DNA of 21,913 nt from Pocillopora damicornis. Its lineage: Eukaryota. The stretch's first letter is position 1. Each line of letters starts with the position of its first letter. The stretch is from the NCBI RefSeq assembly GCF_003704095.1, contig NW_020846470.1, positions 19,971-41,883 of the forward strand, given 5' to 3'. The translations under genes and the position numbers were made by a program. Positions 1 through 18,080 of this stretch are shown piece after piece. Below the pieces are notes generated by a model. It saw only the letters and a program-made list of their open reading frames with translations, did not search any database and was not told the origin of the DNA.

Positions 1-427
1 AACCTTAACTTGTTGTCAACTGACTGTTGTTGAGTTAGGGGAGGGGTGGGTGGGCGGGCAGTTGCTCAGATACTGATATTGATACGCTAACTCTAATAAA
101 AGAACGAAGACAAAGAAAACATTAAAATCACGAGATTAACATTAACCTCTTAAGGACACAGCCAAGGGTGGCATCGCCATAGCTGGCATCGCCATAGCTC
201 GCCTTAATGCCTTAGGTTTTCTCTCGGCGTCACAAGTGCCGATGCTCTTCACCGGCTCAGGCTTTGATTCACTCTCTGTATACATGTCTGTTTGGACAGA
301 AACAGGATCGTGTTAGTGGCAATAAGTTTTTTTTCTTTTGGAGAATGCAGAGTAACATCCATCGGAAAATTATCCTTCGTAGTTGTCCGCCCAAAATAAG
401 AAACTCTGTTCTGTCGAACTTTGTAAT

Positions 428-540
428 AATCGTCACACTTTGTAATACCTGGCGACCTTTACAAAAACTTTTCGTCGCACTTCGAAACAAAAAAGCTGTC
501 ACTCTTTGTAATAATAAATTATCGCACTTGGTACGAAAAT
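428..540. repeat. ~20-bp sub-repeat cluster (gtcRcacttYgtaata-like), 5 units, inside repeat copy 1
   Basis: Successive units: cgtcacactttgtaatacc / tggcgacctttacaaaaac / gtcgcacttcgaaacaaaa / gtcactctttgtaataata / tcgcacttggtacgaaaat. Confidence 0.6.
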
Positions 541-1124
541 ACGCTTTTTGAAATTTTTTCCTCCAACCTCGAGCCTTTAATGGCCGTAATAATTATTTGC
601 AAATCAAAAAATCTTCACAATAATAAGGTTTTCTAAGGTAATGTGCCATGAAATTTGAAGTCATACCAACTCATACTGATATATACATAGTGAAAGACTT
701 CTTCTTGATTGATAGGGGGAATGTCATTTTCACCTTTCAAATTTCACTTTTATAGCTCGAAGAACCAGTTACTGCATCAATCTTCGAAAGATCACCAGAT
801 AAAGCGGTTCCTTTTAATGAAATGTTATACATTTCCCGAAAGTCACCAAGCCAAGCAAGTGGCTTTAAAAAAGTTGACAAGACGTAGTTACATCCTAACA
901 TCAGTGTGCATATTATCCTTACTATTCTCCACACACAGGAGAATTTGTTAAACAATCAAGAGCTTCTTAACTGGCGATCATTTCCTTTATTTTCGACACC
1001 TTAATGTACGATTCAGGTGTGATATTGTTAGGAGAAATTAGATGCTTGTCACACTTAGGGGTCAAAAGGTAAACTATCATCACCCATCAAACCGACTAGT
1101 AAGAGAAAACACGTTCTGCTGTAC

Positions 1125-1226
1125 CTTGGGTCCTCGTTTTAGAGGCTGAATTCATGTCTCTCGTGATTACCCGCGGGGAGGGCGCCTCTGAAGCTTCCTC
1201 TTCCTCATCCTCATCCTCATCCATGC
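1125..1226 (-). CDS. Candidate cassette-like exon (phase 1-1, 102 nt) in repeat copy 1: G MDEDEDEEEEASEAPSPRVITRDMNSASKTRTQ
   Basis: Minus-strand acceptor ttttcaacttacag|GC and donor CCCAAG|GTACAG. Open frame, homologous to exons 2795-2884 and 3321-3490; length 2+99+1. Confidence 0.45.
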
Positions 1227-1571
1227 CTGTAAGTTGAAAATATAATTCGTATTTTGATATTTAATTTATGTTGTCATGGTGTAGTTAGCTTCTTTGCTCC
1301 CTTTTGTCTATCCTTATCCCAGAAAATTATCATGTTGAGGTTTCCATCAATATTCTCTATTTGATAAATCCCAAGAAATAAACAGAGGGAAAGTGTATTC
1401 CACTCCCTGGCTCCCACAATGATTATGTGTACTTTTCTACTGTACTAAGTTTGAACTTCGAACTACGTGTAATGATAACACTTTACGCAGTCTACATTGT
1501 AGCACGCAGGCACAGTTTTGCACAAAGAAAATAAGCAAGCAAACAAACTAGTAGAAATCAAGCTAACTCGG

Positions 1572-1704
1572 ATCAATATCAGTATTTGGGCAACTGCCCA
1601 CCTACCCCTCCCCTAACCCAACATTAACCTTAACTTGTTGTCAACTGACTGTTGTTGAGTTAGGGGAGGGGTAGGTGGGCAGTTGCCCAGATACTGATAT
1701 TGAT
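1572..1704. repeat. Inverted repeat (two 45-bp arms, 1 mismatch, 43-bp spacer) spanning the unit 1 / unit 2 junction
   Basis: 1572-1616 (atcaatatcagtatttgggcaactgcccacctacccctcccctaa) is the reverse complement of 1660-1704 (ttaggggaggggtaggtgggcagttgcccagatactgatattgat). The right arm recurs at 34-83. Confidence 0.8.
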
Positions 1705-2036
1705 ACACTAACTCTAATAAAAGAACGAAGACAAAGAAAACATTAAAATCACGAGATTAACATTAACCTCTTGAGTACACAACCATGCGTGGCTTCGCCT
1801 TAGCTCGCCTTAATGCCTTATGTTCTCTCTCGGCGTCACAAGTGCCGATGCTCTTCACCGGCTCAGGCTTTGATTCACTCTTTATATACATGTCTGTTTG
1901 GACAGAAACAGGATCATGTTAGTGGCAATAAGTTTTTTTTCTTTTGGAGAATGCAGAGTAACATCCATTGGAAAATCATCCTTTGTAGTTGCCCGCCCAA
2001 AATAAGAAACTCTGTTCTGTCGAACTTTGTAATAAT

Positions 2037-2190
2037 CGTCACACTCTGTAATACCTGTCGCACTATGTAAAAAAATTGTCGCACTTTGTAATACCTGGCG
2101 ACCTTTACAAAAACTTTTCGTCGCACTTCGTAACAAAAAATCTGTCACTCTTTGTAATAATAAATTATCGCACTTGGTAAGAAAATACGC
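2037..2190. repeat. Same ~20-bp sub-repeat cluster in copy 2, expanded to ~7 units
   Basis: Copy 2 has the extra block tgtcgcactatgtaaaaaaattgtcgcactttgtaatacc, absent from copy 1. Confidence 0.6.
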
Positions 2191-2794
2191 TTTTTGAAAT
2201 TTTTTCCTTCAACCTCGAGCCTTTAATGGGCCGTAATAATTATTTGCATATCAAAAAATCTTCACTAAAATAAGGTTTTCTCAGGTAATGTGCCATGAAA
2301 TTTGACGTCATACCAACTCATACTGATGATCGGAGGAATGACGACCTGAATTTTTTTATAGTATAGACTTCTTCTTGATTGATAGGGGGAATGTCATTTT
2401 CACCTTTCAAATTTCACTTTTATAGCTCGAAGAACCAGTTACTGCATCAATCTTCGAAAGATTACCAGATAAAGCGGTTCCTTTTAATGAAATGTTATAC
2501 ATTTCCCGATAGTCACCAAGACAAGCAAGTGGCTTTAAAAAAGTTGACAAGACGTAGTTACATCCTAACATCAGTGTGCATATTATCCTGACTATTCTCC
2601 ACACACAGGAGAATTTGTTAAACAATCAAGAGCTTCTTAATTGGTGATCATTTCCTTTATTCTCGACACCTTAATGTACGATTCAGGTGTGATATTGTAA
2701 GGAGAAATTAGATGCTTGTCACACTTAGGGGTCAAAAGGTAAACTATCATCACCCATCAAACCGACTAGTAAGAGAAAACACGTTCTACTGTAC

Positions 2795-2884
2795 CTTGGG
2801 TCCTCGTTTTAGAGGCTGAATTCATGGCTCTCATGATTACCCGCGGGGAGTGCGCCTCTGAAGCTTCCACTTCCTCATCCATTT
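2795..2884 (-). CDS. Candidate cassette-like exon (phase 1-1, 90 nt) in repeat copy 2: E MDEEVEASEAHSPRVIMRAMNSASKTRTQ
   Basis: Acceptor ttttcaatctacag|AA, donor CCCAAG|GTACAG. Phase-compatible with the donor of exon 3321-3490. Confidence 0.45.
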
Positions 2885-3320
2885 CTGTAGATTGAAAATA
2901 TAATTCGTATTTTGATATTTAATTTATGTTGTCATGGTGTAATTAGCTTCTTTGCTCCCTTTTGTCTATCCTTATCCCAGAAAATTATCATGTTGAGGTT
3001 TCCATCAATATTCTCTATTTGATAAATCCCAAGAAATAAACAGAGGGAAAGTGCATTCTACTCCCTGGCTCCCGCAATGATTATGTGTACTTTTCTTTTC
3101 CAAGACAGAATTTCTCCATAAAATATCGATATAATATCAACCAGATAATTGATAAGAATAAGAAAAATATCAATTTGGGGATAATTGGTTTATCCAATAC
3201 TAAATTCTCTGAACTAACATTATAAGAATTGTATGGTTGATAGCAAGGAGAATTACAAATTTGATCTAGGAGTTAAAAGGTTAAATAATGGCCGCTCCCT
3301 TGGTGTAAGTTTCCTCGTAC

Positions 3321-3490
3321 CTTGCTGGTCCATTTCACAGAATTCAAGCTCCTCTTCATCCAGAAGTTCTGCCTCCGCCACCGAAACATTATTGTCGCTA
3401 CTATCCCCAGAGGAGAAGGCACTACCTTCTGTAGGATCACTCCAGTCGGAATCTTTGCTTGTGGAATTCCGTGGCACTTCGACATCGAGA
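3321..3490 (-). CDS. VIT/VWA gene 3' exon: acidic Ser/Asp/Glu-rich segment (S)LDVEVPRNSTSKDSDWSDPTEGSAFSSGDSSDNNVSVAEAELLDEEELEFCEMDQQ
   Basis: Acceptor cattttttcgattgtag|T takes 1 nt to complete the AG left by exon 4473-4570. Donor CAGCAAG|GTACGAGG. 170 nt = 1+168+1. The 3' part is homologous to the repeat-unit exons. Confidence 0.55.
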
Positions 3491-4127
3491 CTACAATCGA
3501 AAAAATGTATAATCGCGGATGAGAGAGAAATTCTCAAATTGATTTTCTCTTGTTGATGTTCTTATTTACCTCATGGTATCGATCAATTTCCAGCTTTTTA
3601 TATTTTCGCTTAGAAGAAAAATTTAAAAGTCCCTTTAGTTGTTGAAATGTACATGTGAATGCAAATGTTAATGTAGGGGAAGATTCAAAGGTCAGGTTCC
3701 ATTACAAAAACACGATCTTCAACTGCAAACGATTGGTAAAGTGTTCGATTGAGAGAATGACTGAAACACTTCCAACTCAAACAAGCTGCAAACTGAAAAG
3801 GTTGATCCCGATGAAAAATAACCAAAGTATAGCTTGCCACAGGAAACCAGACCATCGCGTGAAATCAAGAAAGTTGTTTAGTAATTGTCATCACATGAAT
3901 AGGAAATATCAGCGACAGTTAACGACAACCCTTCATGGCGAGTTATAACTTTTAAGAAAACTTTAGGCAAAAAGACCTATTTTACGGAGTCAAAAAAGTG
4001 TGATCACATATTATCACCCGTTCTACTCCGTGCTTCGAGAAAAAGTAAAAAATGAAAATGTTTTATTCCTAGCAAGCAACAGGTTTAGTTAAGTTTAGTT
4101 CAAACTTCGATCCAAGGGTTAGGGGTT

Positions 4128-4176
4128 AAGTAAAGGAGGGGAGTAGAGGGGAGGGGAGGAGAGGAAGGGGAGGGAC
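4128..4176. repeat. Polypurine GA-rich tract (GGGGAGG-like units)
   Basis: aaggaggggagtagaggggaggggaggagaggaaggggaggga. Confidence 0.8.
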
Positions 4177-4242
4177 TGACAAAAGATGTAACTTGTCCTA
4201 TGAAGTGACAGTCACAGTCATGATAATTAAATTATAATGACT

Positions 4243-4306
4243 ATATATATATATATTATAATATAATATATTATAATGATTATATATATATATATATATA
4301 TATATG
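4243..4306. repeat. (TA)n microsatellite, interrupted
   Basis: ctatatatatatatattataatataatatattataatgattatatatatatatatatatatatatatgg. Confidence 0.9.
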
Positions 4307-4472
4307 GAATCCGTATCAATGTTTCTATCCTTCACTATATCCTTGTACTTTCTTAGTGAGTCTTTCCTTCGTTTTGGTCTTTCTGTCGCGCAAAATGAAG
4401 GTAGTTTGTCCAAGTGCCAAAAGTAACTTAAAATATAATGATGAAGGAGAAAAGGAATAAGTACGCTCTTAC

Positions 4473-4570
4473 CTGAAATCACTGACAGCCGACTCGTTTT
4501 CTTCAAAAATTCGGCAAGCCTTCTCCTCTTCACCCATCAAAGTGTACAAGTTTGAAAGGGCTTTTATTGC
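4473..4570 (-). CDS. VIT/VWA gene exon: AIKALSNLYTLMGEEEKACRIFEENESAVSDF (phase 0 in, 2 out)
   Basis: Acceptor ttttttttttaacacag|GCA, donor TTTCAG|GTAAGAGC. PVTVK|AIKALSNLYT resembles the recalled human VWA5A C-terminal PSVVKAAITFLKS. Confidence 0.6.
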
Positions 4571-5093
4571 CTGTGTTAAAAAAAAAATAAACATGACTAA
4601 ACGGCCAGAAATACTCTTCATTGTTGGTTTTAAAGACAAAGACAGTCAAGGACTCCAGAGGCAACTTATTCGTGTCTTAACATCGTTTGTATACGAGGCT
4701 GACCTACACAGCTGCTGTAGTTGAGCTCGGGCGCTGTGGAATGAAGCAACTAGGAGTACTTCTCCTGAATAAAATGTCAGTCCACCACAGGTTACCACAT
4801 CCCCTCCCCCAATTTCCTTGGATTTTACTTACAGTTCAATAGTTATCATTTACTACTGGGTTGAGAGAAGGAGGAGAGGGTTGTTCAATATAAATTATCT
4901 AGCCCAAGAATACAACACGAAGAACTAGAACCCAACCTATTCGCTTCGAAGTTCAGTAGGCTAACCACTTGACAAATACGTCTCTCTTGCATCTCGTGGC
5001 GTGTCTTTGTCTACTCTACCACACTTTAGTCATGAACGACCAGAAACAGACAAGTAGACAAAAAACCATGGAAATCAAATAGGCACAGTTTAC

Positions 5094-5237
5094 CTTAACT
5101 GTCACTGGCTGATCAGCACCGAGGTTTTCCTTCGCTTCTTCAATAATTTCTTTGTAAAGGCGCTCGCTTTGTAAAACTGAGCTTGTCTCCAACACCTTCG
5201 CCTCTTGGAGCTTTTTCTCTAGTTTCTCTTCAATATT
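5094..5237 (-). CDS. VIT/VWA gene exon: NIEEKLEKKLQEAKVLETSSVLQSERLYKEIIEEAKENLGADQPVTVK (phase 0-0)
   Basis: Acceptor ttccaaccacag|AAT, donor GTTAAG|GTAAAC. 144 nt, 48 codons with no stop, coiled-coil-like composition. Confidence 0.65.
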
Positions 5238-5651
5238 CTGTGGTTGGAACGTGGAGGGCAATCATGCAGATTTGCACATAACGACAAAATTACAATCTTA
5301 GCCTTGACCTCCAAAATCATTTTAACAAAACACCAAACCCCGAAAACGCTTTTCTTTTTGTTAAGTTAAAACCTCTCCCAACAAGGAGTGACTTCAAAAG
5401 AAGTTTGTCTTTACAAGATCTATACATTTTCAAGCAGAAAGCTGATGGGAAGAAAGGAATACCAGAATATCAACTAGGGGATGTTGTTTGATTTGACAGT
5501 AAATTCTCCGAGCCTAAAATGAGAAATATGTTCTGGAAAATGGAGAAAATTTATAGCTAGATCTTGGGACTAAGGTCATAAAAAAAACAAGATATAAGGC
5601 TTTGCAGTAAGCTCGATTTGAAGGCTACTGCTGAAAAAGGACCATTCTTAC

Positions 5652-5774
5652 CAGTTCCTGATTTTTCTCCATTACAGGTCGACTCTCCCAAGCTATGTAT
5701 TCCAATATGTCTACATCTTCCGTAGAGACCAACTCGAGTATACTCGGTCCCTGGCCCTCCTTGAATTTCTCGTC
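5652..5774 (-). CDS. VIT/VWA gene exon: DEKFKEGQGPSILELVSTEDVDILEYIAWESRPVMEKNQEL (phase 0-0)
   Basis: Acceptor ccttcttatag|GAC, donor GGAACTG|GTAAGAATGG. 123 nt. This frame was preferred over the Gly/Cys-rich frame of the six-frame track. Confidence 0.65.
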
Positions 5775-6368
5775 CTATAAGAAGGAAACGGAAAAGCAAC
5801 ACACATGTTGTCAAGAATTTTGAGAGGTTATATGGGTAATTCAACTCCAGCCAATACTCCTTTAAACAGGGTTTCAACGAGACGTATACTCTGGAAACCT
5901 TATCATTCATGTTATTAAAAGCATTTACATGTAAATTCTTAGCTTACCCCTATTTGAGATTCCAGAGTTATCTCGCCATTCGAAAATTTTCTCCTAATGC
6001 TTTAAAAATTCAACTTTAGACTCCGCCATTTTGAAAACAATTCAGTAAAATGGGAACGCACACATAACCTATGAGCAACGGTTCACATTCTGCCGCTCCT
6101 GTAGCTTCAAACAAATTGGCGAGAGATGGAAGAGTGGGGAATGAGCCTTGTTATGTCACAGGTAAGCAGCCGGATCGCTAAGAAAGGTTTAATATGGCGA
6201 CCTCCATGGTCGAATCTTCAGCAAATTGAAAAAAGACTTAGAAAGGCTCGGTTACTCTTAATAATCTCAAAATGAAGCAAGAATCATAATTTCGTACATA
6301 CGCTATTCATCAATGAGACTAAATTGCATGGTTTCTTGGGCATATTTCTCCCTTTATCTCATTTCTAC

Positions 6369-6470
6369 CTTTTCTCTGTGTTCAACTGCAACAAAACTTG
6401 TGAATTTGGATACCACGGAGAACGTCTTGCTCAAGGAAACGATGAAGTCTTTCCTGTCTCTCTTCACAAT
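6369..6470 (-). CDS. VIT/VWA gene exon: IVKRDRKDFIVSLSKTFSVVSKFTSFVAVEHREK (phase 0-0)
   Basis: Acceptor ttattttatgattccgtag|ATT, donor GAAAAG|GTAGAAATG. Aligns well with the recalled human VWA5A segment KKDALNLSLESGVISSFTAFIAINKE. Confidence 0.75.
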
Positions 6471-7014
6471 CTACGGAATCATAAAATAACAACAACCTCG
6501 GTTCAGTCATGAACAAGGCAAATCTCGACGGCCTAGACATAAGTAAGCACTTAGGTATTAACATGCAACTGCAGCCCCCGGTTCTTTGAATGGTGGATAA
6601 CTCAATCCCCAAGACAAATCTCTATCCCGTGGATAGCGCAATACGTTTTGTTCGCAGTTATCCACTAGATAGCGACTTATCCGTTATTTAGTGTTAGTTT
6701 AGCCTCTTAGTCAGCCCCTTGAACAACTCGCAGCCAGTAAATTGTGTTCGCCAAGAACACAACATGATAACCCTGAGCAGGGTTTGAACCCAGACCCCTC
6801 CATCAGGATAGTGAATCAGTGTGTAATGTGTCAATCACCATTTGAAGTTATCGTCATAATCCTCATTGTTTCTGTCTCATCTTATGGAGACTAGGGCCAA
6901 TCCCTCTTTCTCCCTCCAACACGATTTGAATTACTCAGCACCGACAACATGCGGCTAAAATAAATGCAATGATGAATGATATTATTTAATATTAGCTATG
7001 TTTTTGAGACAAAC

Positions 7015-7095
7015 CTCATGCCCAGTGCGCTGCTCATGCAGGCTACCTTCGTCCCAGTCTCTGATGATTGCACGCGCGGTCAGCTGATGAAGAAT
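7015..7095 (-). CDS. VIT/VWA gene exon: ILHQLTARAIIRDWDEGSLHEQRTGHE (phase 0-0)
   Basis: Acceptor ttccttgcacag|ATT, donor CATGAG|GTTTGTC. Aligns with the recalled VWA5A segment TIHRLAAKSLLQTKD. An alternative donor after GACGAAG|GTAGCC gives a shorter exon with a non-compatible phase. Confidence 0.65.
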
Positions 7096-7175
7096 CTGTG
7101 CAAGGAAGCGATTGTAGAAAATTACCAAAAATGCAATCACTGAAAGCTGGATAGTTTTTTTCCACTTGCACTTAC

Positions 7176-7256
7176 TTTGCCCTTAGTGATATTTAGATCA
7201 GCGGTAGACACCATGGTTGATACCGTTGTGCCGTTAACCTCTGCGCTCAAGGTGGC
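7176..7256 (-). CDS. VIT/VWA gene exon: ATLSAEVNGTTVSTMVSTADLNITKGK (phase 0-0)
   Basis: Acceptor tcctaccag|GCC, donor GGCAAA|GTAAGTGC. 81 nt. DLNIT resembles the recalled VWA5A DVNLT. Confidence 0.65.
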
Positions 7257-7333
7257 CTGGTAGGAGTTCAGAAAAAATTCAAAGCATCAGTGTGGCCTTA
7301 AAATGAACTTGATGTCAGAAAATCAGTAGTTAC

Positions 7334-7504
7334 CTGTGTGCAGTTATCAACAAATCCATAAACCACTTGTCTAGAACCGTTGAACAGCGACAAGAGTTGG
7401 TGAGGAGCTTGTACAGGGGGACTGGACCCGGAATCGTGCTGCTGCCAGGTTACTCCCACTGATGTCAGGCCTGGTTGCTCAGCTTTGGACAACTGCGATC
7501 TCAC
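7334..7504 (-). CDS. VIT/VWA gene exon: VRSQLSKAEQPGLTSVGVTWQQHDSGSSPPVQAPHQLLSLFNGSRQVVYGFVDNCTQ (phase 0-0)
   Basis: Acceptor gttcatttag|GTG, donor CACACAG|GTAACTAC. 171 nt. Aligns with the recalled VWA5A segment VSLSWHLPPG...IFRGQRLISYAQL. Confidence 0.75.
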
Positions 7505-8021
7505 CTAAATGAACATTATTTTCTCAACAACGAATTCTTAAATATTCTTTTGATAATCAATTTTTCCAGAAGCTATGGCCGTTTTCTAAGAGACAATGAA
7601 GATTGGCGGAAGTTGTCATCGATAAATAATTTCATGCCATCAATTTTCATCTCGAGTCATAATAGCCTTTTCTGTTGACAGGAATTCCATACCTTTCTTT
7701 CCCATTTAGACTTGGCACTACCTTCAAAAAACTCTGAGGCACCAGCTCCAACTCTGGACATTGCTCGTAGAAGGTAACGATTGGCCGTGGAACTGAGGAG
7801 AAAAGGAAACGAACCAAACAAGGTGTAGTGATGAGAAACTTCTCGCATACAAACGGATATATATAGCAATTTCAAAGGTAACGCCTCAAGTCATCGGTGG
7901 TGTTTAACCAAAAATCCGAATTGTCACTTATCGTCTACAGGTAGAACAGGAAAAAATAATTTAATATCAGAGATCACATTTCTTTACGGGATGCTGCGCA
8001 CCCCGAGATCTGCCTCAATCC

Positions 8022-8058
8022 TAACTTGAAGCATCGTAGCTCAGTTGGTACCGGCATC
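8022..8058 (+). other. tRNA-derived fragment (5' half-like: GCATCGTAGCTCAGTTGGTA...CCGCAG)
   Basis: Shares TAGCTCAGTTGGTA and a CCGG..ATC..CGCAG segment with the 9256-9327 element, but is not a complete cloverleaf. Confidence 0.3.
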
Positions 8059-8899
8059 CAACCGCAGCACACGGACTTGAGTCGACTGTCATCAGAAAAG
8101 AAAAGAAGACCGAATTGGACGACATCTTTGGATCTCTTTGCTAAGATTAAAAACAAGGGAAACTTTATCTCATGGAAAAAACATTAAGTTTACAAAATCT
8201 GAGAGCTCAAAACGCCCTTCCTGAGTGTTTGCAAAATTTAAACTTAGCTTGAGCATCCAACACAGAGCTGAAGCCTTTGGGAGATATGGTACAATACGAT
8301 CCTAACCTGGAAAGGCCCTTTTCCGGTTACTTACCCCACACCAAGGGAAAAGAGCCTGTCACTTTGGCAATGATTGCGGATCAAGCCAAGAGTGGTTTCC
8401 TCTTCTGTCACGTGGCCATCCGAGATTAAGAACAGATTGCGTGGGTGGTCAGCGGTCGATAAGGTGGGTAACATGTACAGCTTCCGAAGGACTCGCCACA
8501 ACTCTGTGCTGCCTTTGTCAGCGATTAAGGACTGGAAAAAATGACGTAATAACTAACGATCTTGACTTTCAACCGGGTTGAAAACCAAAGGAATGGAATG
8601 GCATTTTAATTCGTTTGCACAGAAAAAGAATGTTATGTTCAATGAGAAGGCAATCTGAGGAAGAAATTACATTCTCAACAAGTTTTTAAATTCTTTTCAC
8701 GTGCCTTCCACGCGGTAAATTTTGCCAGCATGAGAAATTTTCAAGTGAAATAACTGAGAAAATCGTATGCAGCCTGTGCTCATATTTTACCATTGCGAGA
8801 ATCTGAGTAAACGCAGGAGCCCATTAATGAGCTCCTAGTATACGCCGATATGTCTCTGGTCAACTGAGCCACCCTACGGAAGCTTAGGAGTTTGCTTAC

Positions 8900-8973
8900 C
8901 TCGACAAATTTTTTAGCTTCTTCAAAAGAATCTTTGTCTTTTCGTACGCTATATAGAAACAGCTCTGAATGTT
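8900..8973 (-). CDS. VIT/VWA gene exon (C-terminal VWA helix): (x)HSELFLYSVRKDKDSFEEAKKFVE (phase 1 in, 0 out)
   Basis: Acceptor tgtctgttttcag|AA, donor GTCGAG|GTAAGCAAAC. Resembles the recalled VWA5A segment TSEFITGKDRMQSKALRTLKR. The upstream partner exon that supplies 1 nt was not found. Confidence 0.6.
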
Positions 8974-9255
8974 CTGAAAACAGACAAGTACAGCCAGTTA
9001 ACTGAACTGATTTAATATCAATTTGAAGCTGCACAAAGGGCTAAAGACGCGATGGAAATGCTAAAAAACGTTTACAGAGTAAGTTGACAATTAAAGGTGT
9101 CCCTCCCTACCTGCCGTCAAAACACAGTAGTTAAACTACAAACTAATCTGAATTTCATATATTTGCACTGCGGTGAAGAGATGAAATTAAGAGATCCTCG
9201 CAGCTAAGAACACTACTGAAACGAGTAGTTGAAAATAGGACCTGAAAAAAATTCA

Positions 9256-9327
9256 GGCTCGTACGGGATTTGAGCCCATGACCTCTGCGATACCGGTGCA
9301 GCGCTTTACCAACTGAGCTAACAAGCC
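9256..9327 (-). pseudogene. tRNA-Ile-like degenerate tRNA (pseudogene or SINE head), followed by a T7 tract
   Basis: Minus strand: GGCTTGTTAGCTCAGTTGGTAAAGCGCTGCACCGGTATCGCAGAGGTCATGGGCTCAAATCCCGTACGAGCC. Resembles a recalled tRNA-Ile sequence, with acceptor stem and A/B-box-like regions. The D-stem and anticodon stem have mismatches, position 33 is not U, and the T-loop reads CTCAAAT. TGAATTTTTTT follows 4 nt downstream. Confidence 0.5.
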
Positions 9328-10800
9328 AACTGGGAGCTGGTCAATGTGTTGAGTCCAAATAAACCATCCAAGTAATGAATGAAGATTTTAGATATATGAA
9401 TTTCATATATTTAAATATATATTTATAAACTAATCTCTTGTTTGTAGTCAACAAACCATTGACAGAAATGTAGCGTCCACGGATTTACGAAAAGAGCATG
9501 GAAATGGAGCGTGTTACTCTTATTTTAACTTCAATGTTCATTGCAATCAAATCAAATAAAACCAAGGATTCTAAGGTATGCGCGAGTTGATTGGTCAATT
9601 CCGTTTCCGAGCCCACGTTCTACCAGGCCATTGACTCCCACAAAATGAGGAGAGCACCTGGCAAATCAAACGCTATTCATATGTACATCTGAATTGTTGA
9701 CGAGATAATAAATATTCTAATTCAAATAAATTACAGAAACTTTTGATTCTCTGATCTGCGATTGAAGCTGGTTCGGAAGGTTTTTTCTGTAAAACAATTG
9801 TTGAGGGTTTTGAGGAGGATTTATGATCATTGCTCAGTACTGACTGCAAGGAAAATTAGAACTATTTAATTAAAGAAGAGGTACTACACTGTGACTATAA
9901 AGTAGCTAAATATAAACTTATGTACATGGCATTTCGTGCATTCTGGCATGACTGCTTTTCATACAATTTGAATTGAGTAAACAGAATAGGAAAAACGCTA
10001 GAAGAGCAGAGTTCGCGGAGATAAACTAAAACCGAGAAAAAATTCCTGGTGCAGACCTGAGTTCTAAGCTTGGAAGGTTTTTGTACGCAGTAGTACTCTT
10101 TCGCATTCGTCAGACAATTTCTGGATACGAAAGTCTTGATTTCACTGTCAAAATTGATCAGTCTCTATTTGTCTCTGAACGAGGTTGTGCTTCATTTGAA
10201 ATTACGTTAGCCCTGGTTAGTTCTCTTCATAACTTCTTCTGAATCTTTCATCTCATTTTTTTCAACTATTGGGCTAATGCAGGTCCTCCTTACTCTTTCG
10301 AGCATTTTGATTGGTTTCTAACGCCAATAAACAATTAAGCACCACATAACAATCGCTTTTATGATTGAAATAAATTTAATTCACCACCTGACAAATCCAT
10401 GTTAAGGTTATGTCATGAAAGAAGTAAGATACATTTTCCAAGGGTTTATGCCGTGATAAACACTCACGGGATATTCGAAGAACACTCAGAAAGACTGACA
10501 ACGGCTCGTTATTCATGTTCTTTAAACAACCTGAGCGACTTTATGCCGCTAAACACTCTTGGATAAGGCTCTCTGTCGCCTACATAAATCACATCAGCAT
10601 AATTTTGCATGCTGCGGAGAACGAGTCAATACATCACTAAGTAGCTACTTTAAATGGAGATAAAACTCATTCCTACACTATTTTTGGTTTTTGGGAGATC
10701 TTATATCACCGTTTTTGAAAAATGCGGAAAGGACTCAAAGAAAATGTAATATTTAAAGCCTTAAAAATAAGTCTGAAATCATTCTCAGTTTATACGATAA

Positions 10801-11928
10801 CTAATTGTTAATACTCTCAGATTTGTGCTTTACAGAACGCAGCTTTCCCGCACACCACAAGACAATAGCAACATGTCCAAAGAGAACAAACATGGCCACG
10901 CCAACCGTGTTCATAAGAGTGGGCTGTGAAGAAAAACGATCTAACAGAGCTGATCTCCTTTCTTGAAGATCCACTTGGGCCGCGTTGAACGCCTGTTGGA
11001 TACCCATGGCGATCAATATATGAGCTAAATTGTGGCTTTGGCCAAAATTATCGAACACACCTGCCATTAAACGTTCTGGAACTCTCGTGGCGTACAGCGC
11101 GGCGCCTAAACCGCAGAAGACAACATGACGTTTGAAATACACCGTGGATATGCGGTTATACGCTGGGTCGGCGTTTTCACATAACAAAATACGGACCGTG
11201 TATGGTGATGTGATAACAAGCCAATTTACGGCAAGAACGCCGACCCTCAGCAAGGCTTTGTAATCTTTACAAAGTGGATGGTTTGATGCGCAACACAAAA
11301 AAGTTATGAAAAACGAAAAGAACGTCGAAATAGACTGGAAAACGGTAAGCGAATCGTGCACTGCCCAAGCAGACGCGCCCGCGGTCCTAGAGTAGAAAAA
11401 CATTGCTTGGCCGGCCGTGAACGTGTAAAACCCGATAGCCGCGTAGTCAAAGAAGAAACAAATTCTATGGGAATCCTCTGACATGCAGTTGAAAAGATGT
11501 GCAGAGGAACTCATTAAATACAGAACCGAAATTCCCACGGCGAAGGAGATCAGCGGCAGAAAAAATGGGTCAGTCGTGGGTAAGGACGTCATGTTTACAG
11601 ACACGAACAGTACTAGAGCAAGCAGGTGGCTCCAGACGTTTATAGTTTCGTTGGAAGATCGGAGCAAACTTCTGATACATTCCCAGAAGGTTAATCCAGG
11701 TCGTCGATAACCAGACACGATGAATGGCGTCCTGAACACTTCAGGGATTTGGTTGCTTGACAAGCCGTACTTTTTCTTGTTCGCCCCTTCAGAGTTCTCT
11801 TTTACACTTGAAGTTTTCTTCATATTGTCGCAGGCTGAAAAATTATTTTCCCATTCGTGACAGTTTGTCGGCGTTCTTTCTTTCATTTCGTTGGGTTGTT
11901 GAGGCCTTTTGTACGTCTTTAAATGCAT
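10801..11928 (-). CDS. PAQR family (class II, membrane progestin receptor-like) 7-TM protein; single exon; ~375 aa from first ATG
   Basis: Uninterrupted ORF. N-terminal IPEVFRTPFIVSGYRRP matches the recalled mPR motif VPPLFWKPYIYAGYRPL. Motifs present: NETINVWSHLL, SSSAHLFNCMS, DYAAIG, PERLMAGVFDNFGQSHNLAHILIAMG (three-His Zn site of the ADIPOR fold). Multiple hydrophobic TM segments. Confidence 0.85.
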   Translation of the reverse strand: MHLKTYKRPQQPNEMKERTPTNCHEWENNFSACDNMKKTSSVKENSEGANKKKYGLSSNQIPEVFRTPFIVSGYRRPGLTFWECIRSLLRSSNETINVWSHLLALVLFVSVNMTSLPTTDPFFLPLISFAVGISVLYLMSSSAHLFNCMSEDSHRICFFFDYAAIGFYTFTAGQAMFFYSRTAGASAWAVHDSLTVFQSISTFFSFFITFLCCASNHPLCKDYKALLRVGVLAVNWLVITSPYTVRILLCENADPAYNRISTVYFKRHVVFCGLGAALYATRVPERLMAGVFDNFGQSHNLAHILIAMGIQQAFNAAQVDLQERRSALLDRFSSQPTLMNTVGVAMFVLFGHVAIVLWCAGKLRSVKHKSESINN

Positions 11929-12502
11929 TCTCACGGATTAGCAGCTCCTTCTTTCGTTTCACTCAGCGATAAAATTGATTGATGGCGTTGTCTTCCTCAA
12001 TTAGACAACAGTTTATTCATTTGTGGGTCATTCACTTGAAGATTCCCGCCGTTAAATAAAAAATGTGGCTCACCTACGGCTGATTTCCTAGGTGCTTTCG
12101 CTTTTGCTCAATTTCCTTGAGCTTACCCGGTTGTCAAGTCAAGCACTGATATCAAACCGCTACCAGTTCTGAAAACGCCAAGCGCTGATCGGACCGCTTA
12201 CCAGTCGCGACGCTTATCATGAATAAATAAAATCGTTCTCTGCTACACTGGCAGGACAGATACGCAGACATTCTCTTGAAAAGTTCATTAAGAACTACAC
12301 GAAACCACAGATTAATACAACATTCCCGAACAAAACAAAGCCAGCGCTAAAACCGGTATGAAATGGATGACATAATAAGTTCAACTGGCTTGTAGAATCC
12401 CTCGCGCGTCTGCTCGCGTTGACTAACGTCATGTAAATTTTAAATATTTACCAGATCATCTTTCTCGAAAGCATCTCCCAGCGTTAGAACGCCAGCAATT
12501 AC

Positions 12503-12558
12503 CTTTGCCAGTATTATAAAGGCGAACAAAAGATTTTCGTAAATCTTGATTTTTTCGC
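12503..12558 (-). CDS. Possible small VWA exon (G)EKIKIYENLLFAFIILAK; weak
   Basis: Acceptor tatgcgccacag|GCG, donor GCAAAG|GTAATTGC. Phase-compatible with exon 13497-13763. Homology is weak and an alternative frame is also open. Confidence 0.25.
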
Positions 12559-13496
12559 CTGTGGCGCATAAATTTGATAAATTAGGAAAGTCACATTATT
12601 CATGTTAATATTTATTGTATAAGTCTCGAGGGACCCTCTGTTTATATTTGAATAGTTGCGTAAATATGGGCCAAACTGAAAATAATTTGAAACAAAACAG
12701 TAATACTAGTTAACAATTTGTATTTCAAGGTAAAAACACGTTCGTGACAAACTCCACAAAAATTTATCAATGTCACTCACTGAGTATTCGAACCATCGAC
12801 TTCGCAATGTATTACAAAAAAACGGACCGCATGAAATTGGAGTTAATTGTACAGAGATGTATGTAAAAAAAAAAAAACAATTCCGTTGTGATTTATTCTA
12901 TCTAGGAAAATCAACACAAATCTGATTTTCCTCGTTCTTCGCGGATGTTTCGGTATAGCTTAAAATGTACATTAAACGAACTAACAAAGCTAGGTGATAC
13001 AATACTGTAGCGAAACAAAACGATAAAATTCATTCATTGGATAGAGAAAAGGTTGCTAGAAGCAGTACCCTTTCGTGAGGGCTTCTCGCTTTTTTTGTTT
13101 CTTTATAGTATCAAAGCAGGTGATAACTCTGGACAATCAAGTCACCAGAAAAGTTTTATTTAACAAATTTCTATGGAAACGTTAGCGTTTCAGCGGAAAT
13201 TCGCTAATCGTAGTGCTATAAATCACGACGTTTGCTTGAATGTAACGGTTGAAGCGCATGCATGAAATGCACGCACAGTCAGTCTTCTTGTTATAATTTC
13301 TGTCTAGACGGATAATTCCCTTAAATTATTGAGAAGAATTTTTTAGATGCAATAACCTATCATCAAAAGGATGCTCTAAGTGGATAGAGTTCCACAGTCG
13401 TAATATATCCTTTGAACTAGACTAAAAGTAGACTGCTTTATAGAGCTCTTAAAATAGCCCTCCAAGTGGAGCCCCGCACAATGCGAGCAGGGCTAC

Positions 13497-13763
13497 CACA
13501 GGAACAAGTTGATGTAGTATCTGAAAAGAATATTATTCTCTCTACTTGAGATAAGGTATCACGAGGAAACATATCAAAATTCCATGCAGCTCTTGATAAA
13601 ACAACAACTACTTCAGACCCATAAAAACATCCGTAAGCAAGCACCTTCGAAAATCCTCGCGTTTGGGGCGTATATTTTAATACAGGAAATAAATGGGCGC
13701 TTTTACAAGGGCAAGAGAAGACACTCATTGAATTTTTCCCAAAAACGAGGCCAGATGTGGTCA
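13497..13763 (-). CDS. VIT/VWA gene exon (central VWA): (M)TTSGLVFGKNSMSVFSCPCKSAHLFPVLKYTPQTRGFSKVLAYGCFYGSEVVVVLSRAAWNFDMFPRDTLSQVERIIFFSDTTSTCSC (phase 1 in, 1 out)
   Basis: Acceptor (T-rich)cattctgcatcttaaag|TG. HLFPVLKYTPQT aligns with the recalled VWA5A CFPESVKYTQQT, and IIFFSD with LFVFTDG. Donor TGTG|GTAGCC is tentative; an alternative is ATT|GTGCGG at 13480. Confidence 0.55.
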
Positions 13764-13780
13764 CTTTAAGATGCAGAATG

Positions 13781-13824
13781 AAAAAAACAAAAACAAAAAC
13801 AAAGAAAAAATAACAACAAAAAAC
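13781..13824. repeat. (AAAAC)n-like A-rich microsatellite
   Basis: aaaaaaacaaaaacaaaaacaaagaaaaaataacaacaaaaaacc; on the minus strand it forms the T-rich polypyrimidine tract of the acceptor of exon 13497-13763. Confidence 0.8.
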
Positions 13825-14790
13825 CAGATACTATGAGTAGAATAGAAAGATGGTGAATGTTAGGATCAGTCACAACTTACAATTTTGCAATGAGCGCTAT
13901 GTAGAAGAAAAGGAAATGGTTTCCTTTATTGAAATGCTTTAGTTAGAAGCTATTATCAGTTATTGGAAGAAAGGATAGACGAGTGTGATAAACCAGTCAA
14001 AGAATCAACGCCGAAATCTAATCCTCTCTCATAATAAAACATTGTTCTTAAAGGTTTTGTAACTCGTCCTTACAACAAAGGGACGGAAGAGAGCGCTTTT
14101 TTCAATTGTTTCTAATTTTTTATTGGAGGGCCGTTCATTTAAAGAGAGCTGCTGAAACGAGAATTGAATGTGCGCCACTTAAAAGCAGTTATTCTGATAA
14201 CAGTTCGAGTACGATGACCAAAGCTGTCTCAAAATTTGTTTTAACTACAATGGTAAAAACATTTTGCGAGTAAAAACAATCATGAAATCAATTTACAAGT
14301 AGAACAAAGGTACTATGTCTGTAAAAAGTTCATTTCCATGCAATTTTCATGGACATTACATTACAATGATCAGCACAAGAATAGCGTGGAACACTGAAGT
14401 GTTAATAGGCCATTGATATCTGCAAAAAATTAATTCAAATACCTTTCTAATTAAGAATATATATAGAAAACCTCATTAAAAGATCAAGTCCTAATTGGAA
14501 GAAAAAGTTTCGGACATTTCTCTGAAGAGGACAACTTGCCTCGGTGATATAAAACATCCGTACTTAAAATAACAAAAAATATTCAAATAAATTCATGCTA
14601 TATGTATCTCAACAGTAGAAAGCAAACCGCTTGTTCTTCTTTACAATTTTCACGCTTTCCTCTTTAGAAAAACAATGGCAAACTTAAAATAAATTTTACT
14701 TTTGGAGGAAACATCCACTTCGATCAAATTACAGTATTTGCAACATAGGCGAACTTCTCGCCTTCCTTCGCAGAAATTTAAAAGTTCAGT

Positions 14791-15903
14791 TTAAGTAGAT
14801 TTATCATGTCCAATTTTACCGGATGAATTCGAAATTAAAGACCTAGCAAACCAGAGTACGATAGCGAGATTCCCAACCAGAACTAAAAGAGTCAAACCGA
14901 TCGTCTCGAAAAAACTCGGTGTATGTTCCGTGCTGAGGAATTCTTTTCTGGCTGAGAGATCCGAAAGGAGAACGGAGAATGCAAAATGGTCACCGGTAGT
15001 GGTAAGCACATGAAGAAAGTTGTGACTTTGCCCGATAAAATCGAAGAACCCGGGAACGAACCGTTCAGGTATTCGGGTCATATTCATTAAGGCAGCGGCG
15101 GCGAACGAGATAAGACACCCTACGAAGAGACCAAGAGAATCGGGATTGCATGCAGGATCAGAAGAGCACAAGAACAGACGAACGAAGTACGGTGAACAGT
15201 TGTGCAACCAGGATAGGATGTAGAAACCGGTGCGGACGATGAAACGGAGATCGAACCACTGATGACGAGACTTGCAACAGTTGAAAGTGGCACTGAACGA
15301 AATCAGGGCTGAAACGAATAGGAACAACTCCCGCCAGTCGAACAAAAGGAGCCCAGATCCCAGCGGATGGCTGTAAAAATAGAAGGCTTGACCATTGGTA
15401 AATGTGTATACGCTGATAGCAGCGTAATCCAGGTAGTACCCGATGTGGTTTTGTAGCTCGGTCATAGAGCTGAACATATGGGCCACACAACTCATCGTGT
15501 ACATAATGCAGCAGCCGAGAGTGTACGACACCAGTGGAAAATAAAAATGATCAGTGAAAGGATTATGGTTCCACACCACTGAGCAGTAGCGGGCAATGAG
15601 TATCACGGCGGAGAGAACATGGCTCCAGAAATTTACTGTCTCGTTGTTGGCGTAGAAAACACTCTTCACGCTATCGAGAGCGGTCAGGTTACGCGGCCGG
15701 TATCTTGTCGTAAGAAACTCGGTGCGGAAAGCTTGTGGGATTTGATCTTCACGTAATAACATGGAGTAGCGGTGGACCTCTTCAGTTTTACCTTCTTTCA
15801 GTGACCCATTTTTGTAAACACTATCATCTAAATCGTGCGACATCACCGCACCGTTTCGTTCGACTTGTTTAAGCTTTCCTTGTCTCGTCAGCACCTTCGT
15901 CAT
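14791..15903 (-). CDS. Second PAQR family (mPR-like) protein, paralog of 10801-11928; single exon; ~371 aa from first ATG (MTKVLTRQ...)
   Basis: ORF open to 16002, but the first ATG is at 15903. Motifs: IPQAFRTEFLTTRYRP, NETVNFWSHVLS, SCVAHMFSSMT, DYAAIS, PERFVPGFFDFIGQSHNFLHVLTTTG. Roughly 40% identical to the other copy. Confidence 0.85.
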   Translation of the reverse strand: MTKVLTRQGKLKQVERNGAVMSHDLDDSVYKNGSLKEGKTEEVHRYSMLLREDQIPQAFRTEFLTTRYRPRNLTALDSVKSVFYANNETVNFWSHVLSAVILIARYCSVVWNHNPFTDHFYFPLVSYTLGCCIMYTMSCVAHMFSSMTELQNHIGYYLDYAAISVYTFTNGQAFYFYSHPLGSGLLLFDWRELFLFVSALISFSATFNCCKSRHQWFDLRFIVRTGFYILSWLHNCSPYFVRLFLCSSDPACNPDSLGLFVGCLISFAAAALMNMTRIPERFVPGFFDFIGQSHNFLHVLTTTGDHFAFSVLLSDLSARKEFLSTEHTPSFFETIGLTLLVLVGNLAIVLWFARSLISNSSGKIGHDKST

Positions 15904-16499
15904 TTTTAACGATTTCTCCGCTCCTAAAAATATTTTTGCTTTTCTGAACCGGCGCCGGCGCTTCGCTTGTTGATGAATCGATATTGCAAACTGTAAAAAC
16001 AATTATGCAAATTCCAAACAATACGTAAGAACTGAGCAGATCTAACTTGCGCACGTTCAAAGTCATCTTCGTGGGTTGCACATTTTAAATAACGAAAAAT
16101 CATTAGAAAACGACAAATTAAAAGACACATTCTGGAGAAAACTTTACAGTAAAATCCTTCTAAAGCATCTGTATCCGTTGGATTTAATAATGGTTTCAAA
16201 GTTTTGAGTATATGGACTTTAAACTACTATCAATTAAAGAGTCTGATTATCTTTTGACTAAATAATTGACTCGTGACAGAATAGAGTGATTTTCACAATA
16301 TCTGTAAAGAATGAAGCAAAACCAAGTTTCTTTTTCTCTCTCTCTCGCACAGTTAAACCATTGCTTTATTTATTTGAGAGTTATGAACACACTGAACAGA
16401 GGTTTAAATAAAAAGGTTGGAGAGAAGAAGCTTACGCTCAAGAATCTTGAAGGGAGTACTTAAAGAAAGGAAAATACGTCACACCATAAGTGAAATTTT

Positions 16500-16560
16500 T
16501 TAAATGTCTTGAAATCCGCAATCGTTACGACGTGACGTTAACGCGCGACTGATTATCATG
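16500..16560 (-). promoter_or_regulatory. CpG-rich block with TGACGT (CRE-like) half-sites upstream of the nested PAQR gene 14791-15903
   Basis: atcgttacgacgtgacgttaacgcgcgactgattatcatg lies ~600 bp upstream of the ATG at 15903 on the coding strand. A tatttaaaat TATA-like motif lies ~185 bp upstream (around 16085). Confidence 0.25.
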
Positions 16561-17121
16561 CTGAAATGCACTGGCGTTTTTCAAGGATAGTTATTTCATA
16601 TTTGCACGCTTGAGTTGTTACAAAATTACGCTTCAAAATGCACACCATTTAACATCTAAATCCAGGTGGTTTAAGATGTGTTCAAAAATTAAAACTTCAG
16701 ATATTTCGACTCCACTCTAACGGTTCACGAATATCGCACCACAGTTGTGGTGTCGGCTCCAGGAACATTGCACATCATGGGGACGAGTATGTGCAAACAT
16801 CGTGGTGCCTGAAGACATTAGTTGTTAAAAAATTTAAAACAGATTTTTTTCGAGCTTCTCTTTTACACTTGGCACTGTTCTGATCTTCGTGCTTTAGGAG
16901 TGGTGCCCTCTTATGTCTAACGTGGCTTCAACGGAGTCTACGAATGTGAGGCGCATGAGCGAATGCAATTGGCTATTCTGACGAAAATATGACCATGGAC
17001 TAGTATGAGATAAGACACATGAAACTTTCTTTTCCAATGAAGAAACGCATTTGAGTTGCAATGTTTAAGTCCGTGGTATATCTTTTTTCAAAAAATCCCT
17101 TTAACACACAAATGAACTTAC

Positions 17122-17215
17122 TGCTTCCAAACACGAGTACGTTGAAAATCCAACCTTCCTTCACAAGACTAAGGCACATCAGTAGTATCTTTTTGGCGTC
17201 GTTAAGATTTGAACC
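17122..17215 (-). CDS. VIT/VWA gene exon (VWA alpha1/betaB): GSNLNDAKKILLMCLSLVKEGWIFNVLVFGS (phase 0 in, 1 out)
   Basis: Acceptor ttttctctaacag|GGT, donor GGAAGCA|GTAAGTTC. Aligns with the recalled VWA5A segment RIQAAKETLILLLKSLPIGCYFNIYGFGS. Continues the MIDAS motif of the previous exon. Confidence 0.7.
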
Positions 17216-17754
17216 CTGTTAGAGAAAACAGATGTCAGCAGTATAACATATTTTTTTCAGAGCAATAAGGACAATGGTGCAGTTCTGGGCCCAGTTGTTC
17301 GAAGGCCGATTAGCGCTAACCCAGAATTAAATTTTAGTCTGCTTTTAGATCTGAAATCAGATTTCACAGTAACCCTAGAGCTTGGTTCGTTCCTTGTAAA
17401 AGGAAGATGGGGTCTGTAATTGGCTTAAGTATATACTACAATGGGGTTGGGGTTCTGAGAGGCCAGCGGCACGTTTCCGGAAAAAATTGACCCAGGTACC
17501 TTCCTTGCCCTGGCTTATCGTTTCCTTCGGAAAGTACAAATAGCACAACCTGAGATTAAACAGCTGTGGACAAACCATAGAAAAATGACGCAAATTTCCT
17601 AATTAAATGGTTCTGGAGTTTGAGATTAGCGCCGGAAATGAACAGCTCTCATTTGATCCCCAGAGGGATTTGCTTTAGCATGCGAAGAACATAACTACTA
17701 CGCGCTTCTGTACAGAAACGTACAAATAATATATTGACAGAGATCAACACTGAC

Positions 17755-17847
17755 CTTCATTGAGCAGGAAAGATCAAGCAGAAATATCACTTCAACTTCA
17801 GAAGGACTTTTAGCCTCGAACTCAGGATAAAATGTGAGCATACAAGC
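17755..17847 (-). CDS. VIT/VWA gene exon (start of VWA domain, MIDAS DxSxS): ACMLTFYPEFEAKSPSEVEVIFLLDLSCSMK (phase 0-0)
   Basis: Acceptor catttttcctctag|GCT, donor ATGAAG|GTCAGTG. Aligns with the recalled VWA5A segment VSFYPNIPEDQPSNTCGEFIFLMDRSGSMQ. Confidence 0.75.
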
Positions 17848-18080
17848 CTAGAGGAAAAATGCGTCCATGAGATTAAAGGTCTTTAGAGGAGAACACACGT
17901 GGCCCTCATCGCCCTTCCACAGCAGAAAGCAACTAAGAGGATCTTAACTCTTTTGGAATGGAAAGGCAGGTCGTCACAGGTCCTGAGTATTAACCTTGCT
18001 ATTCCGCCTCTTTACATCAAAAGTACAAGTGATTGTAAGTGTTCAATGTGAAAGATAACACTAGAGAGCTGACCACTGAC

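Follow-up and report, generated by a model that had tools for sequence, protein, structure and literature searches.

A short exon in the disordered linker of a Pocillopora coral PARP4 gene is probably amplified in a young tandem array

Most of the gene for PARP4, the vault poly-ADP-ribose polymerase, appears to lie on the minus strand of a 21,913-nt stretch of DNA from the stony coral Pocillopora damicornis (contig NW_020846470.1, positions 19,971 to 41,883; hereafter the window). A small linker exon of this gene, exon R, has probably been duplicated in tandem in Pocillopora together with a surrounding unit of ~1.65 kb, giving copies that can be combined in frame and likely lengthen the linker; we put the probability of this reading at about 0.8. 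In the scenario that we propose, the common ancestor of Stylophora and Pocillopora would have had one small phase 1-1 exon R in the disordered PARP4 linker. In the Pocillopora lineage, a ~1.65-kb segment consisting of 212 nt of upstream intron, R, the downstream intron and a ~790-nt junction would have been duplicated in tandem. Unequal recombination would then have grown or shrunk the array, leaving present haplotypes with two, three or four R and with a second open phase 1-1 segment, X, in each unit that precedes another. The array would insert modules of 30-36 residues into the linker, perhaps with X-encoded segments between them, and its exons outpace its introns mainly by amino-acid-changing substitutions and in-frame indels.

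The gene was recognised by its domains and its relatives. Open segments and exons concatenated from window positions 21,000 to 8,300 on the minus strand matched the full Pfam VIT profile at 6.2e-40. A partial concatenate of window exons gave a weak VWA_3 match covering the start of the VWA domain only, and both VIT and VWA are clear on the orthologous P. cf. effusa model, P0178. The closest database relatives of the window exons are PARP4 proteins of the corals Acropora, Desmophyllum, Oculina and Porites (73-81% identity), and one relative, P0108, falls in a 90% cluster with the Stylophora pistillata PARP4 entries PFX33719.1 and XP_022795687.1. When reverse-complemented, the window is collinear with the Stylophora PARP4 locus (L002, LSMT01000009.1) at ~77-82% nucleotide identity. 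It is also collinear with the P. cf. effusa PARP4 locus (L018), at 97-98% outside the repeat; this locus comes from the long-read, gap-free reference GCA_942486045.1, which was deposited as P. meandrina, and its array interval is CALNXJ010000003.1:950902-995306. The window thus derives from a Pocillopora lineage near this reference but separate from it. The only catalytic-domain exons in the window are the last ones, at 21801-21878 (matching P0001 315-340 and P0032 564-582), and the N-terminal BRCT and PARP catalytic domains are complete in P0178, from the same 97-98% identical locus. The vault-binding C-terminal domain (major-vault-protein interaction, PF26156) lies outside the window; it is on record for P0108 and for the proteins encoded at L002 and L018.

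An earlier note on this DNA had placed the repeated exons at the 3' end of a VIT/VWA gene, as a variable C-terminal region. This placement did not hold. In the P. cf. effusa protein of 2050 residues, the VWA domain ends at 1056, the R region spans ~1392-1493 and the conserved C-terminal domain begins at ~1919, so that ~550 codons lie downstream of the repeated exons. Beyond the window start, an overlapping scaffold, L009, carries the sequence on into a large linker exon of ~425 codons, after which comes the vault-binding C-terminal domain. By these alignments, the repeated exons belong to an internal disordered linker that connects the VIT/VWA module to the vault-binding C-terminus, rather than to the 3' end of the gene.

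The repeat is evident from self-comparison of the window. Positions 411-1438 aligned with 2055-3096 in self-BLAST (93.1% over 1054 columns, E=0) and positions 1-451 with 1626-2057 (91.8%). This bears out two statements of the earlier note, that ~1.6-kb tandem units each carry a homologous exon and that the exon was amplified by duplication of the unit, as the genomic repeats are arranged head to tail. In the intron, the two window copies are 3.6% different by substitutions only. By global alignment, the shared block starts at 3096 in one copy and at 1438 in the other, in both cases 212 nt upstream of the exon, and positions 1439-1625 occur once in the window. Unit a, delimited by self-alignment at 1439..3096 on the minus strand (1658 nt), runs in gene orientation from 212 nt of intron through exon R and 570 nt of ancestral intron to ~790 nt that contain a minisatellite, exon X and a palindrome. 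Its part 2225-2854 is homologous to Stylophora L002 45884-47099. Unit b (1..1438, minus strand) is truncated by the window start and continues in L009. The inter-unit part is present n-1 times, with n R exons and n-1 X exons.

Each window unit has one copy of R. Copy a (2795..2884, minus strand, 90 nt) encodes (E)MDEEVEASEAHSPRVIMRAMNSASKTRTQ(G) and is flanked by the acceptor tattttcaatctacag and the donor CAAG|gtacagta, and copy b (1125..1226, minus strand, 102 nt) encodes (G)MDEDEDEEEEASEAPSPRVITRDMNSASKTRTQ(G), with the acceptor tattttcaacttacag and the donor CAAG|gtacagca. In both, 2 nt at the start complete a split codon and 1 nt (G) is left at the end, which makes both exons phase 1-1; 90 and 102 are multiples of 3. 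The exon coordinates, acceptors, CAAG|GTACAG donors, phases and peptides in the earlier note were all exact. The encoded module of 30-36 residues consists of an acidic run followed by SPRVITRDMNSASKTRTQ.

Upstream of the array lies PARP4 linker exon A (3321..3490, minus strand, 170 nt), identified by its splice sites and frame. It is Ser/Asp/Glu-rich and ends in ...EFCEMDQQ; its 3' end reads ...ATGGACCAGCAAG|gtacga, so that the donor CAAG|gtacga leaves in phase 1, and its reading runs from xxT-CTC-GAT to CAA-G. The preceding PARP4 exon (4473..4570, minus strand, 98 nt, AIKALSNLYTLMGEEEKACRIFEENESAVSDF, phase 0 to 2, about P0178 residues 1302-1334) ends in phase 2, which fixes the reading frame into exon A. 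The in-frame stop near 3253 that would be met by reading through past exon A was confirmed. The earlier note had grouped exon A with the repeat exons as homologous, and we considered whether it might be an older copy of R. This idea was dropped, as the similarity is not significant and the likeness is limited to acidity and the CAAG|GTAC donor; exon A is not a member of the array. Its ortholog is the 3' part of Stylophora exon L002 41451-41648; the donor of that exon, ...CAACAGG|gtacga, is used in a Stylophora transcript, L001.

Comparison with Stylophora points to a single founding exon. The two window units correspond to the same single stretch of Stylophora, L002 45884-47099, in which a self-similarity check found no internal repeat; because Stylophora has one copy, the duplication is specific to Pocillopora. 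The Stylophora R ortholog is the constitutive exon at 45824-45943 (120 nt, phase 1-1), which encodes (G)DADKEKIRCRAYERPSPPFISPFPRVARRRQFSAPKPEAA and has the donor GCAG|gtacagttgaac, with the same unusual GTACAG as the window donor CAAG|gtacagtagaac. The last 60 nt of R copy a and the downstream intron align to this exon and its intron. In shuffle tests, this exon alone among the Stylophora small exons was significantly similar to the R peptides, with z=3.4 for copy a and z=5.1 for copy b (0/500 shuffles reached the copy b score). Another candidate, the Stylophora exon 44570-44653 ('ESPDVLRVENQSALYRPTSPG'), is similar to R by eye and was rejected with z about 0 in these tests. The RNA-derived contig L001 (run SRR13196817) maps to L002 in 17 blocks, including 45823-45943 joined to 47768. 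Because L001 maps as spliced blocks that include it, the founding exon and its GTACAG donor are used in vivo, and the exon A donor is likewise conserved and used in Stylophora. The earlier note had allowed that transcripts might end at or just after exon A; in the ortholog they do not, as L001 splices onward and includes the R ortholog. At the other end of the array, the last L009 unit runs collinearly via the ancestral intron into the large exon.

The two loci otherwise share their exon order, two nested HlyIII genes and the donors GTACGA and GTACAG, and in both the linker has a series of small phase 1-1 exons (87, 84 and 120 nt in Stylophora). Stylophora PARP4 differs in having one R copy, which is highly diverged, and no X, in having two extra small exons (42995-43081 and 44570-44653) without a window counterpart, and in lacking the window intron 3491-4472.

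Copy number was examined across assemblies. Metagenome gene callers had recorded each R exon as a mini open reading frame (ORF), which made exact look-ups possible. The run-on ORF of R copy b is in 34 blocks of a public assembly collection, and each contig read derives from a Tara Pacific coral metagenome; the length of the acidic tract changes by 6 nt at a time, so that the ORF variants have 40-46 aa. The array was seen in many independent Tara Pacific coral metagenome assemblies as well as in the gap-free long-read P. cf. effusa assembly, and is therefore not an assembly artefact. Scaffold L009, which is gap-free and 99.72% identical to window 11224..1, extends 8.9 kb beyond the window and reads A, R(90), X, R(102), X, R(90) and the large exon at 12911. 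It thus has three R, and its third unit lies just past window position 1, where the earlier note had the array running off the window. The gap-free scaffold L020, from another lineage, has the same layout and three R with different exon versions. L018, without gaps, has four R and three X in units that are 95-97% alike. In contrast, the third R is absent from L019 and L021, which come from two different samples and have two R each. Alignment of L019 with L020 revealed a clean 313-nt deletion that takes the third R, at the ancestral position, with its flanks, and L021 has no third R from the second X to the large exon. The upstream extension and the check for copy-number variation that the earlier note had suggested therefore gave haplotypes with two, three and four R. 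Scaffold L016, with three b-type exons, was set aside and not counted as evidence for at least five units, as its first and last 330 nt are identical, suggesting a looped assembly path. Since some short contigs are possibly mis-joined, we relied on scaffolds that span the array without gaps and on the long-read assembly. The units are young (3-4% apart), and copy number therefore still differs, from two to four, among closely related lineages. Unequal recombination would be the process by which the array was amplified and reduced.

A second cassette-like exon, X, which the earlier note had not mentioned, is present in every array unit that has another unit after it. Candidate copy a (1768..1893, minus strand, 126 nt, phase 1-1) would encode (D)MYIKSESKPEPVKSIGTCDAEREHKALRRAKAKPRMVVYSR(G) and has a good acceptor, tcctgtttctgtccaaacag, and a weak donor, gttaat. 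Candidate copy b (147..287, minus strand, 141 nt, phase 1-1) contains an in-frame 15-nt tandem repeat at 169-199, in the 3' half of X. Splice sites and reading frames are kept throughout the array. The ...acag acceptor and gtacag donor are present, and stops absent, in 37/37 R copies (90, 96, 102 or 108 nt), and all 27 X copies keep their splice sites and are open (120, 126 or 141 nt). As the acceptor, the GTACAG donor and a length divisible by three are kept in every copy, any subset could join the mRNA without a frameshift. Consistent with the earlier claim that any number of copies can be spliced in frame, 32/32 inclusion patterns of the five cassette exons on the spanning scaffold L009 stay in frame into the large exon. 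The predicted junction peptides are ...TRTQ|GMDEDEDEEEEASEAPSPR for R to R and ...TRTQ|DMYTESESKPEPVK for R to X.

Evidence for use of the copies in Pocillopora comes from the P. cf. effusa gene model CAH3035263.1. Its order is ...CEMDQQ | DMDKEKEASEAPSPRVITRDMDSATKPRTE | DMDTESESKPEPVKSIGTRDAERKPEAFRRARARMAVFSRG | MDEDEEEEASEAPSPLVITRDMNSASKTRTE | DESKK..., that is R, X, R, with the X homolog (L018 35882-36004) spliced between two R exons. The annotation passages of the source paper describe models that draw solely on alignments of cnidarian proteins and of the transcriptome of the species itself, with ab initio prediction left out (PMC10236652). Since the annotation was evidence-only, the R, X, R order is indirect evidence of use. 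This model suggests that several R copies probably enter Pocillopora PARP4 mRNA.

To characterise variation in the array, 16 distinct units were aligned. R and X were the two most variable places in the unit, at ~3x the intron. Nucleotide diversity was 0.078 in R and 0.095 in X compared to 0.028 in the intron, and segregating columns made up 22% of R (p=1e-4) and 25.5% of X (p=2e-7) compared to 9.3% of the intron. The excess persisted after CpG-context columns were removed (R 21.9%, X 22.6%, intron 7.5%). Variable sites were more frequent at codon positions 1 and 2 (49/162) than at position 3 (11/81; p=0.004). Nonsynonymous to synonymous codon states numbered 19:1 in R and 40:3 in X, where ~22% synonymous would be expected (joint p=7e-4), and the ratio of nonsynonymous to synonymous change (pN/pS), calculated from pooled paralogs with small counts, was 9.2 for R and 3.2 for X. 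Indel events were in frame in 4/4 cases in the exons compared to 3/17 in the intron. The earlier note had looked for purifying selection on the exon relative to the intron of the unit, and the result was the opposite. The two window copies alone, with 6 substitutions per 90 nt in the exon and 48 per 1316 nt in the intron, did not differ significantly (p=0.15), and the tendency was away from purifying selection. Because the variation is tied to the reading frame, it argues that R and X are translated, as part of what would be a weakly constrained or diversifying disordered region; diversifying selection may act on the array exons.

The window lineage, extended with L009, was also compared with P. 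cf. effusa. In this one pairwise comparison, with small counts, pN/pS was 0.46 for the VIT-VWA block, 1.75 for exon A (3321-3490), 2.40 for the large linker exon (L009 12911-14232; L018 37692 onward) and 0.30 for the C-terminal domain. Across the whole PARP4 linker, nonsynonymous change thus exceeds synonymous change between the two Pocillopora lineages, in parallel with exon 30 of vertebrate PARP4.

Several observations weigh against tandem duplication having yielded exons that are used together. The GTACAG donor of R is without the usual G at +5, and among the other donors read in this gene only that of exon A (GTACGA) has C at +4. The GTTAAT donor of X is weak, and X is without a detected counterpart in Stylophora: searches with X or the inter-unit sequence against the Stylophora upstream introns and small exons (BLAST with word size 7, nhmmer) found no homology, only the multi-copy palindrome. 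The ~790-nt inter-unit part could be filler introduced at the first junction, or it could be ancestral upstream intron. CAH3035263.1 uses 2/4 R and 1/3 X of its genome. The predicted spliced C-terminal peptide had no match at E<=0.001 in a protein search, a full HMMER scan covering 1.84 billion cluster representatives found nothing but ORF fragments of genomic origin (40-81 aa), and an exact-pattern scan of Joint Genome Institute (JGI) metagenome contigs for the R exon gave 0 matches; as these searches for a spliced transcript were null, the case for several R copies in one mRNA comes from a single gene model. Some of the exon variation falls in tracts prone to slippage, (GAT/GAG)n in R and the 15-nt repeat in X, and may be inflated by it; in-frame indels in such tracts require no selection. 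The units compared also mix paralogs with several lineages, mostly on short-read metagenome scaffolds, in which a repeat may collapse or be mis-joined.

Alternatively, the extra copies could be silent pseudo-exons, with one R spliced, for example that at the ancestral position, and the other R and all X being intron that has not yet decayed. In units only 3-4% apart, intact splice sites and open frames could persist by chance. The weak GTACAG and GTTAAT donors, the empty protein, HMMER and JGI searches for a Pocillopora transcript and the two R left out of CAH3035263.1 are in line with this, as is the fact that one R can be deleted outright (L019). However, unused intron should vary like intron, whereas R and X vary ~3x more, with the excess at codon positions 1 and 2. 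The summed nonsynonymous to synonymous ratio of 59:4, with no stop in 64 copies, follows the frame in a way that is hard to obtain without translation. In addition, the evidence-based model has two R and one X, and L019 and L021 have lost the copy at the ancestral position and must use a duplicated copy or none. We consider silent pseudo-exons unlikely. A cluster of mutually exclusive exons, with exactly one R in each transcript, would provide alternative versions of the linker rather than a longer one. Kondrashov and Koonin in 2001 and Letunic et al. in 2002 are said to have described tandem exon duplication as an origin of such exons, of which it is generally held to be the classic source, and the R copies do differ at many amino-acid positions. 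But the exons are symmetric and multiples of 3, so that exclusivity is not imposed by the frame, the one gene model at hand has two R in one transcript, and with introns of ~1.5 kb between copies steric exclusion is not expected. Judged by this model and by the frame, exclusive use is highly improbable. We give least credence, and very little, to the units being a transposable element with a captured PARP4 pseudo-exon or an assembly artefact, such as two haplotypes placed side by side. The window does end inside the repeat, scaffold L003 (99.92% identical to window 21913..1598) breaks at 1598, a palindrome resembling a miniature inverted-repeat transposable element (MITE) is found in each unit, and a repeat resembling a short interspersed nuclear element (SINE) lies just upstream of the array. 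Against this, apart from the palindrome and the SINE-like piece, no further copy of the unit was found in the 21.9-kb window or the 61-kb Stylophora locus, the unit ORFs gave no Pfam domain, and the last unit is collinear with the ancestral intron. Distinguishable units moreover recur in many assemblies, with four of them, without gaps, in the long-read reference. The captured pseudo-exon that the earlier note had named as a possible refutation is thus contradicted by the lack of dispersed copies in the window and the Stylophora locus, by the lack of Pfam domains and by the collinearity of the last unit. Tandem duplication of the PARP4 linker exon with its unit, yielding copies that can be combined in frame, accounts best for these data.

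It is textbook knowledge that exon duplication can lengthen a protein or give rise to alternative splicing. The coral PARP4 array is an ordinary tandem exon duplication and a new, young and polymorphic example of it. Like others, it has direct units, homologous symmetric exons with their splice sites kept, and a copy number set by duplication and deletion. It differs in having two candidate exons per unit and in having exons that are more, rather than less, variable than the introns. Because haplotypes with two, three and four copies and a clean deletion are at hand, the steps of exon amplification can be traced within one coral genus. The gene of the sister lineage P. cf. effusa, CAH3035263.1 (Noel et al. 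2023, PMC10236652), has R-X-R in its model, with two R there compared to four in the genome. The passages of PMC10236652 that bear on this deal with its subject, the tandem duplication of whole genes, and mention neither the array nor its copy-number variation. In practical terms, short-read coral assemblies break or collapse at the array, and even the reference gene model takes 2/4 exon copies.

The array also lies in a notable part of the protein. The PARP4 part of a vertebrate study describes a ~360-residue disordered region, encoded by the largest exon (human exon 30), whose sequence and length both vary strongly (Daugherty et al. 2014, PMC4038475); there, this region has a dN/dS of 1.75 between human and rhesus in a protein that is otherwise conserved. 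Cryo-electron microscopy of PARP4 revealed long disordered regions that bridge the folded domains (PMC12280208). As far as the PARP4 part of PMC4038475 describes the vertebrate protein, the coral one resembles it in having a fast-changing disordered linker that joins the VWA module to the vault-binding end, with conserved flanking domains. The vertebrate signal is in one large exon, and exon amplification is not described in that part of the study. In contrast, length variation in coral PARP4 comes partly from the array of small cassette exons immediately upstream of the largest linker exon. The array thus sits in the part of PARP4 that evolves fast in vertebrates and has been proposed to face pathogens, which offers a testable link between vaults and coral immunity or adaptation. 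We suggest only tentatively, and think it less probable than not by a clear distance, that the coral linker is under diversifying selection as in primate and bat PARP4, with the copy-number-polymorphic R/X array as a second route to variation. If so, individuals or lineages would make vault PARPs that differ in the number and version of a short acidic/SPRVITRDMNSASK module, and the signature of host-pathogen conflict proposed for vertebrate PARP4 would extend to a cnidarian.

Repeats of other kinds are found in and beside the units. The unit contains a 19/40-nt minisatellite (2017..2133), and units differ there by 40 nt in length. The palindromic MITE-like element (1567..1704) has arms of 52 nt with 96% complementarity; another copy begins at window 1-86, and more copies are at L002 43360-43497 and 2420-2658. 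In Rfam, it gave only mir-4436 and mir-3943 matches, under the gathering score (51.6 vs 74 bits), and no known RNA gene was found in the unit. The short-read scaffolds L003 and L005 both end within this palindrome. The multi-copy SINE-like repeat (3100..3285), in the intron that separates exon A from the first unit, has at least three dispersed copies in the Stylophora locus (L002 13472-13661, 18588-18743 and 58453-58586, 75-82%) and is not at the orthologous Stylophora position.

Further differences from Stylophora were noted around the array. Exon A is 436 nt from the first R in the window and 4.2 kb in Stylophora. The single Stylophora exon L002 41451-41648 corresponds to two window exons plus a 982-nt intron and 57 nt of extra coding sequence, the window sites flanking the intron 3491-4472 being coding 4473-4508 and 3470-3490. 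Since the extra window residues (CRIFEENES...) are similar to those of Acropora PARP4 (ASIVFEQTQ...), a genomic deletion in Stylophora probably removed the intron together with the codons next to it. The 100 nt of intron after R (window 2735-2794 and 1065-1124; L002 45944-46043) are 76-78% identical between Pocillopora and Stylophora, and the last 60 nt of R, at 69-72%, fall below this downstream intron. The conserved intron 3' of R could contain a splicing control element.

Elsewhere in the gene, two intronless HlyIII/PAQR genes, at window 10804-11928 and 14794-15903, encode 375 and 370 aa (Pfam HlyIII 6.5e-31 and 6.5e-25). They are on the same, minus strand as PARP4, nested in the ~8-kb intron that splits the VWA domain, and Stylophora PARP4 nests the same pair (L002 29536-30648 and 33721-34845). 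The exact protein sequence of one of them recurs on 20 Tara Pacific coral metagenome scaffolds. A TPR-like helical exon (window ~5100-5240, minus strand, NIEEKLEKKLQEAKVLETSSVLQSERLYKEIIEEAKENLGADQPVTVK) belongs to the PARP4 models of Acropora, Porites and P. cf. effusa. Every Stylophora transcript or model seen leaves it out, although its sequence is kept in Stylophora at 89.6% (L002 41063-41139). Possibly, this exon is an alternative one. The first 30 nt of L001 map to L002 29236-29265, in the big PARP4 intron ~270 nt upstream of the first nested HlyIII gene, after which L001 splices to the VWA exons. These 30 nt could mark an internal alternative first exon or promoter, or a chimeric contig.

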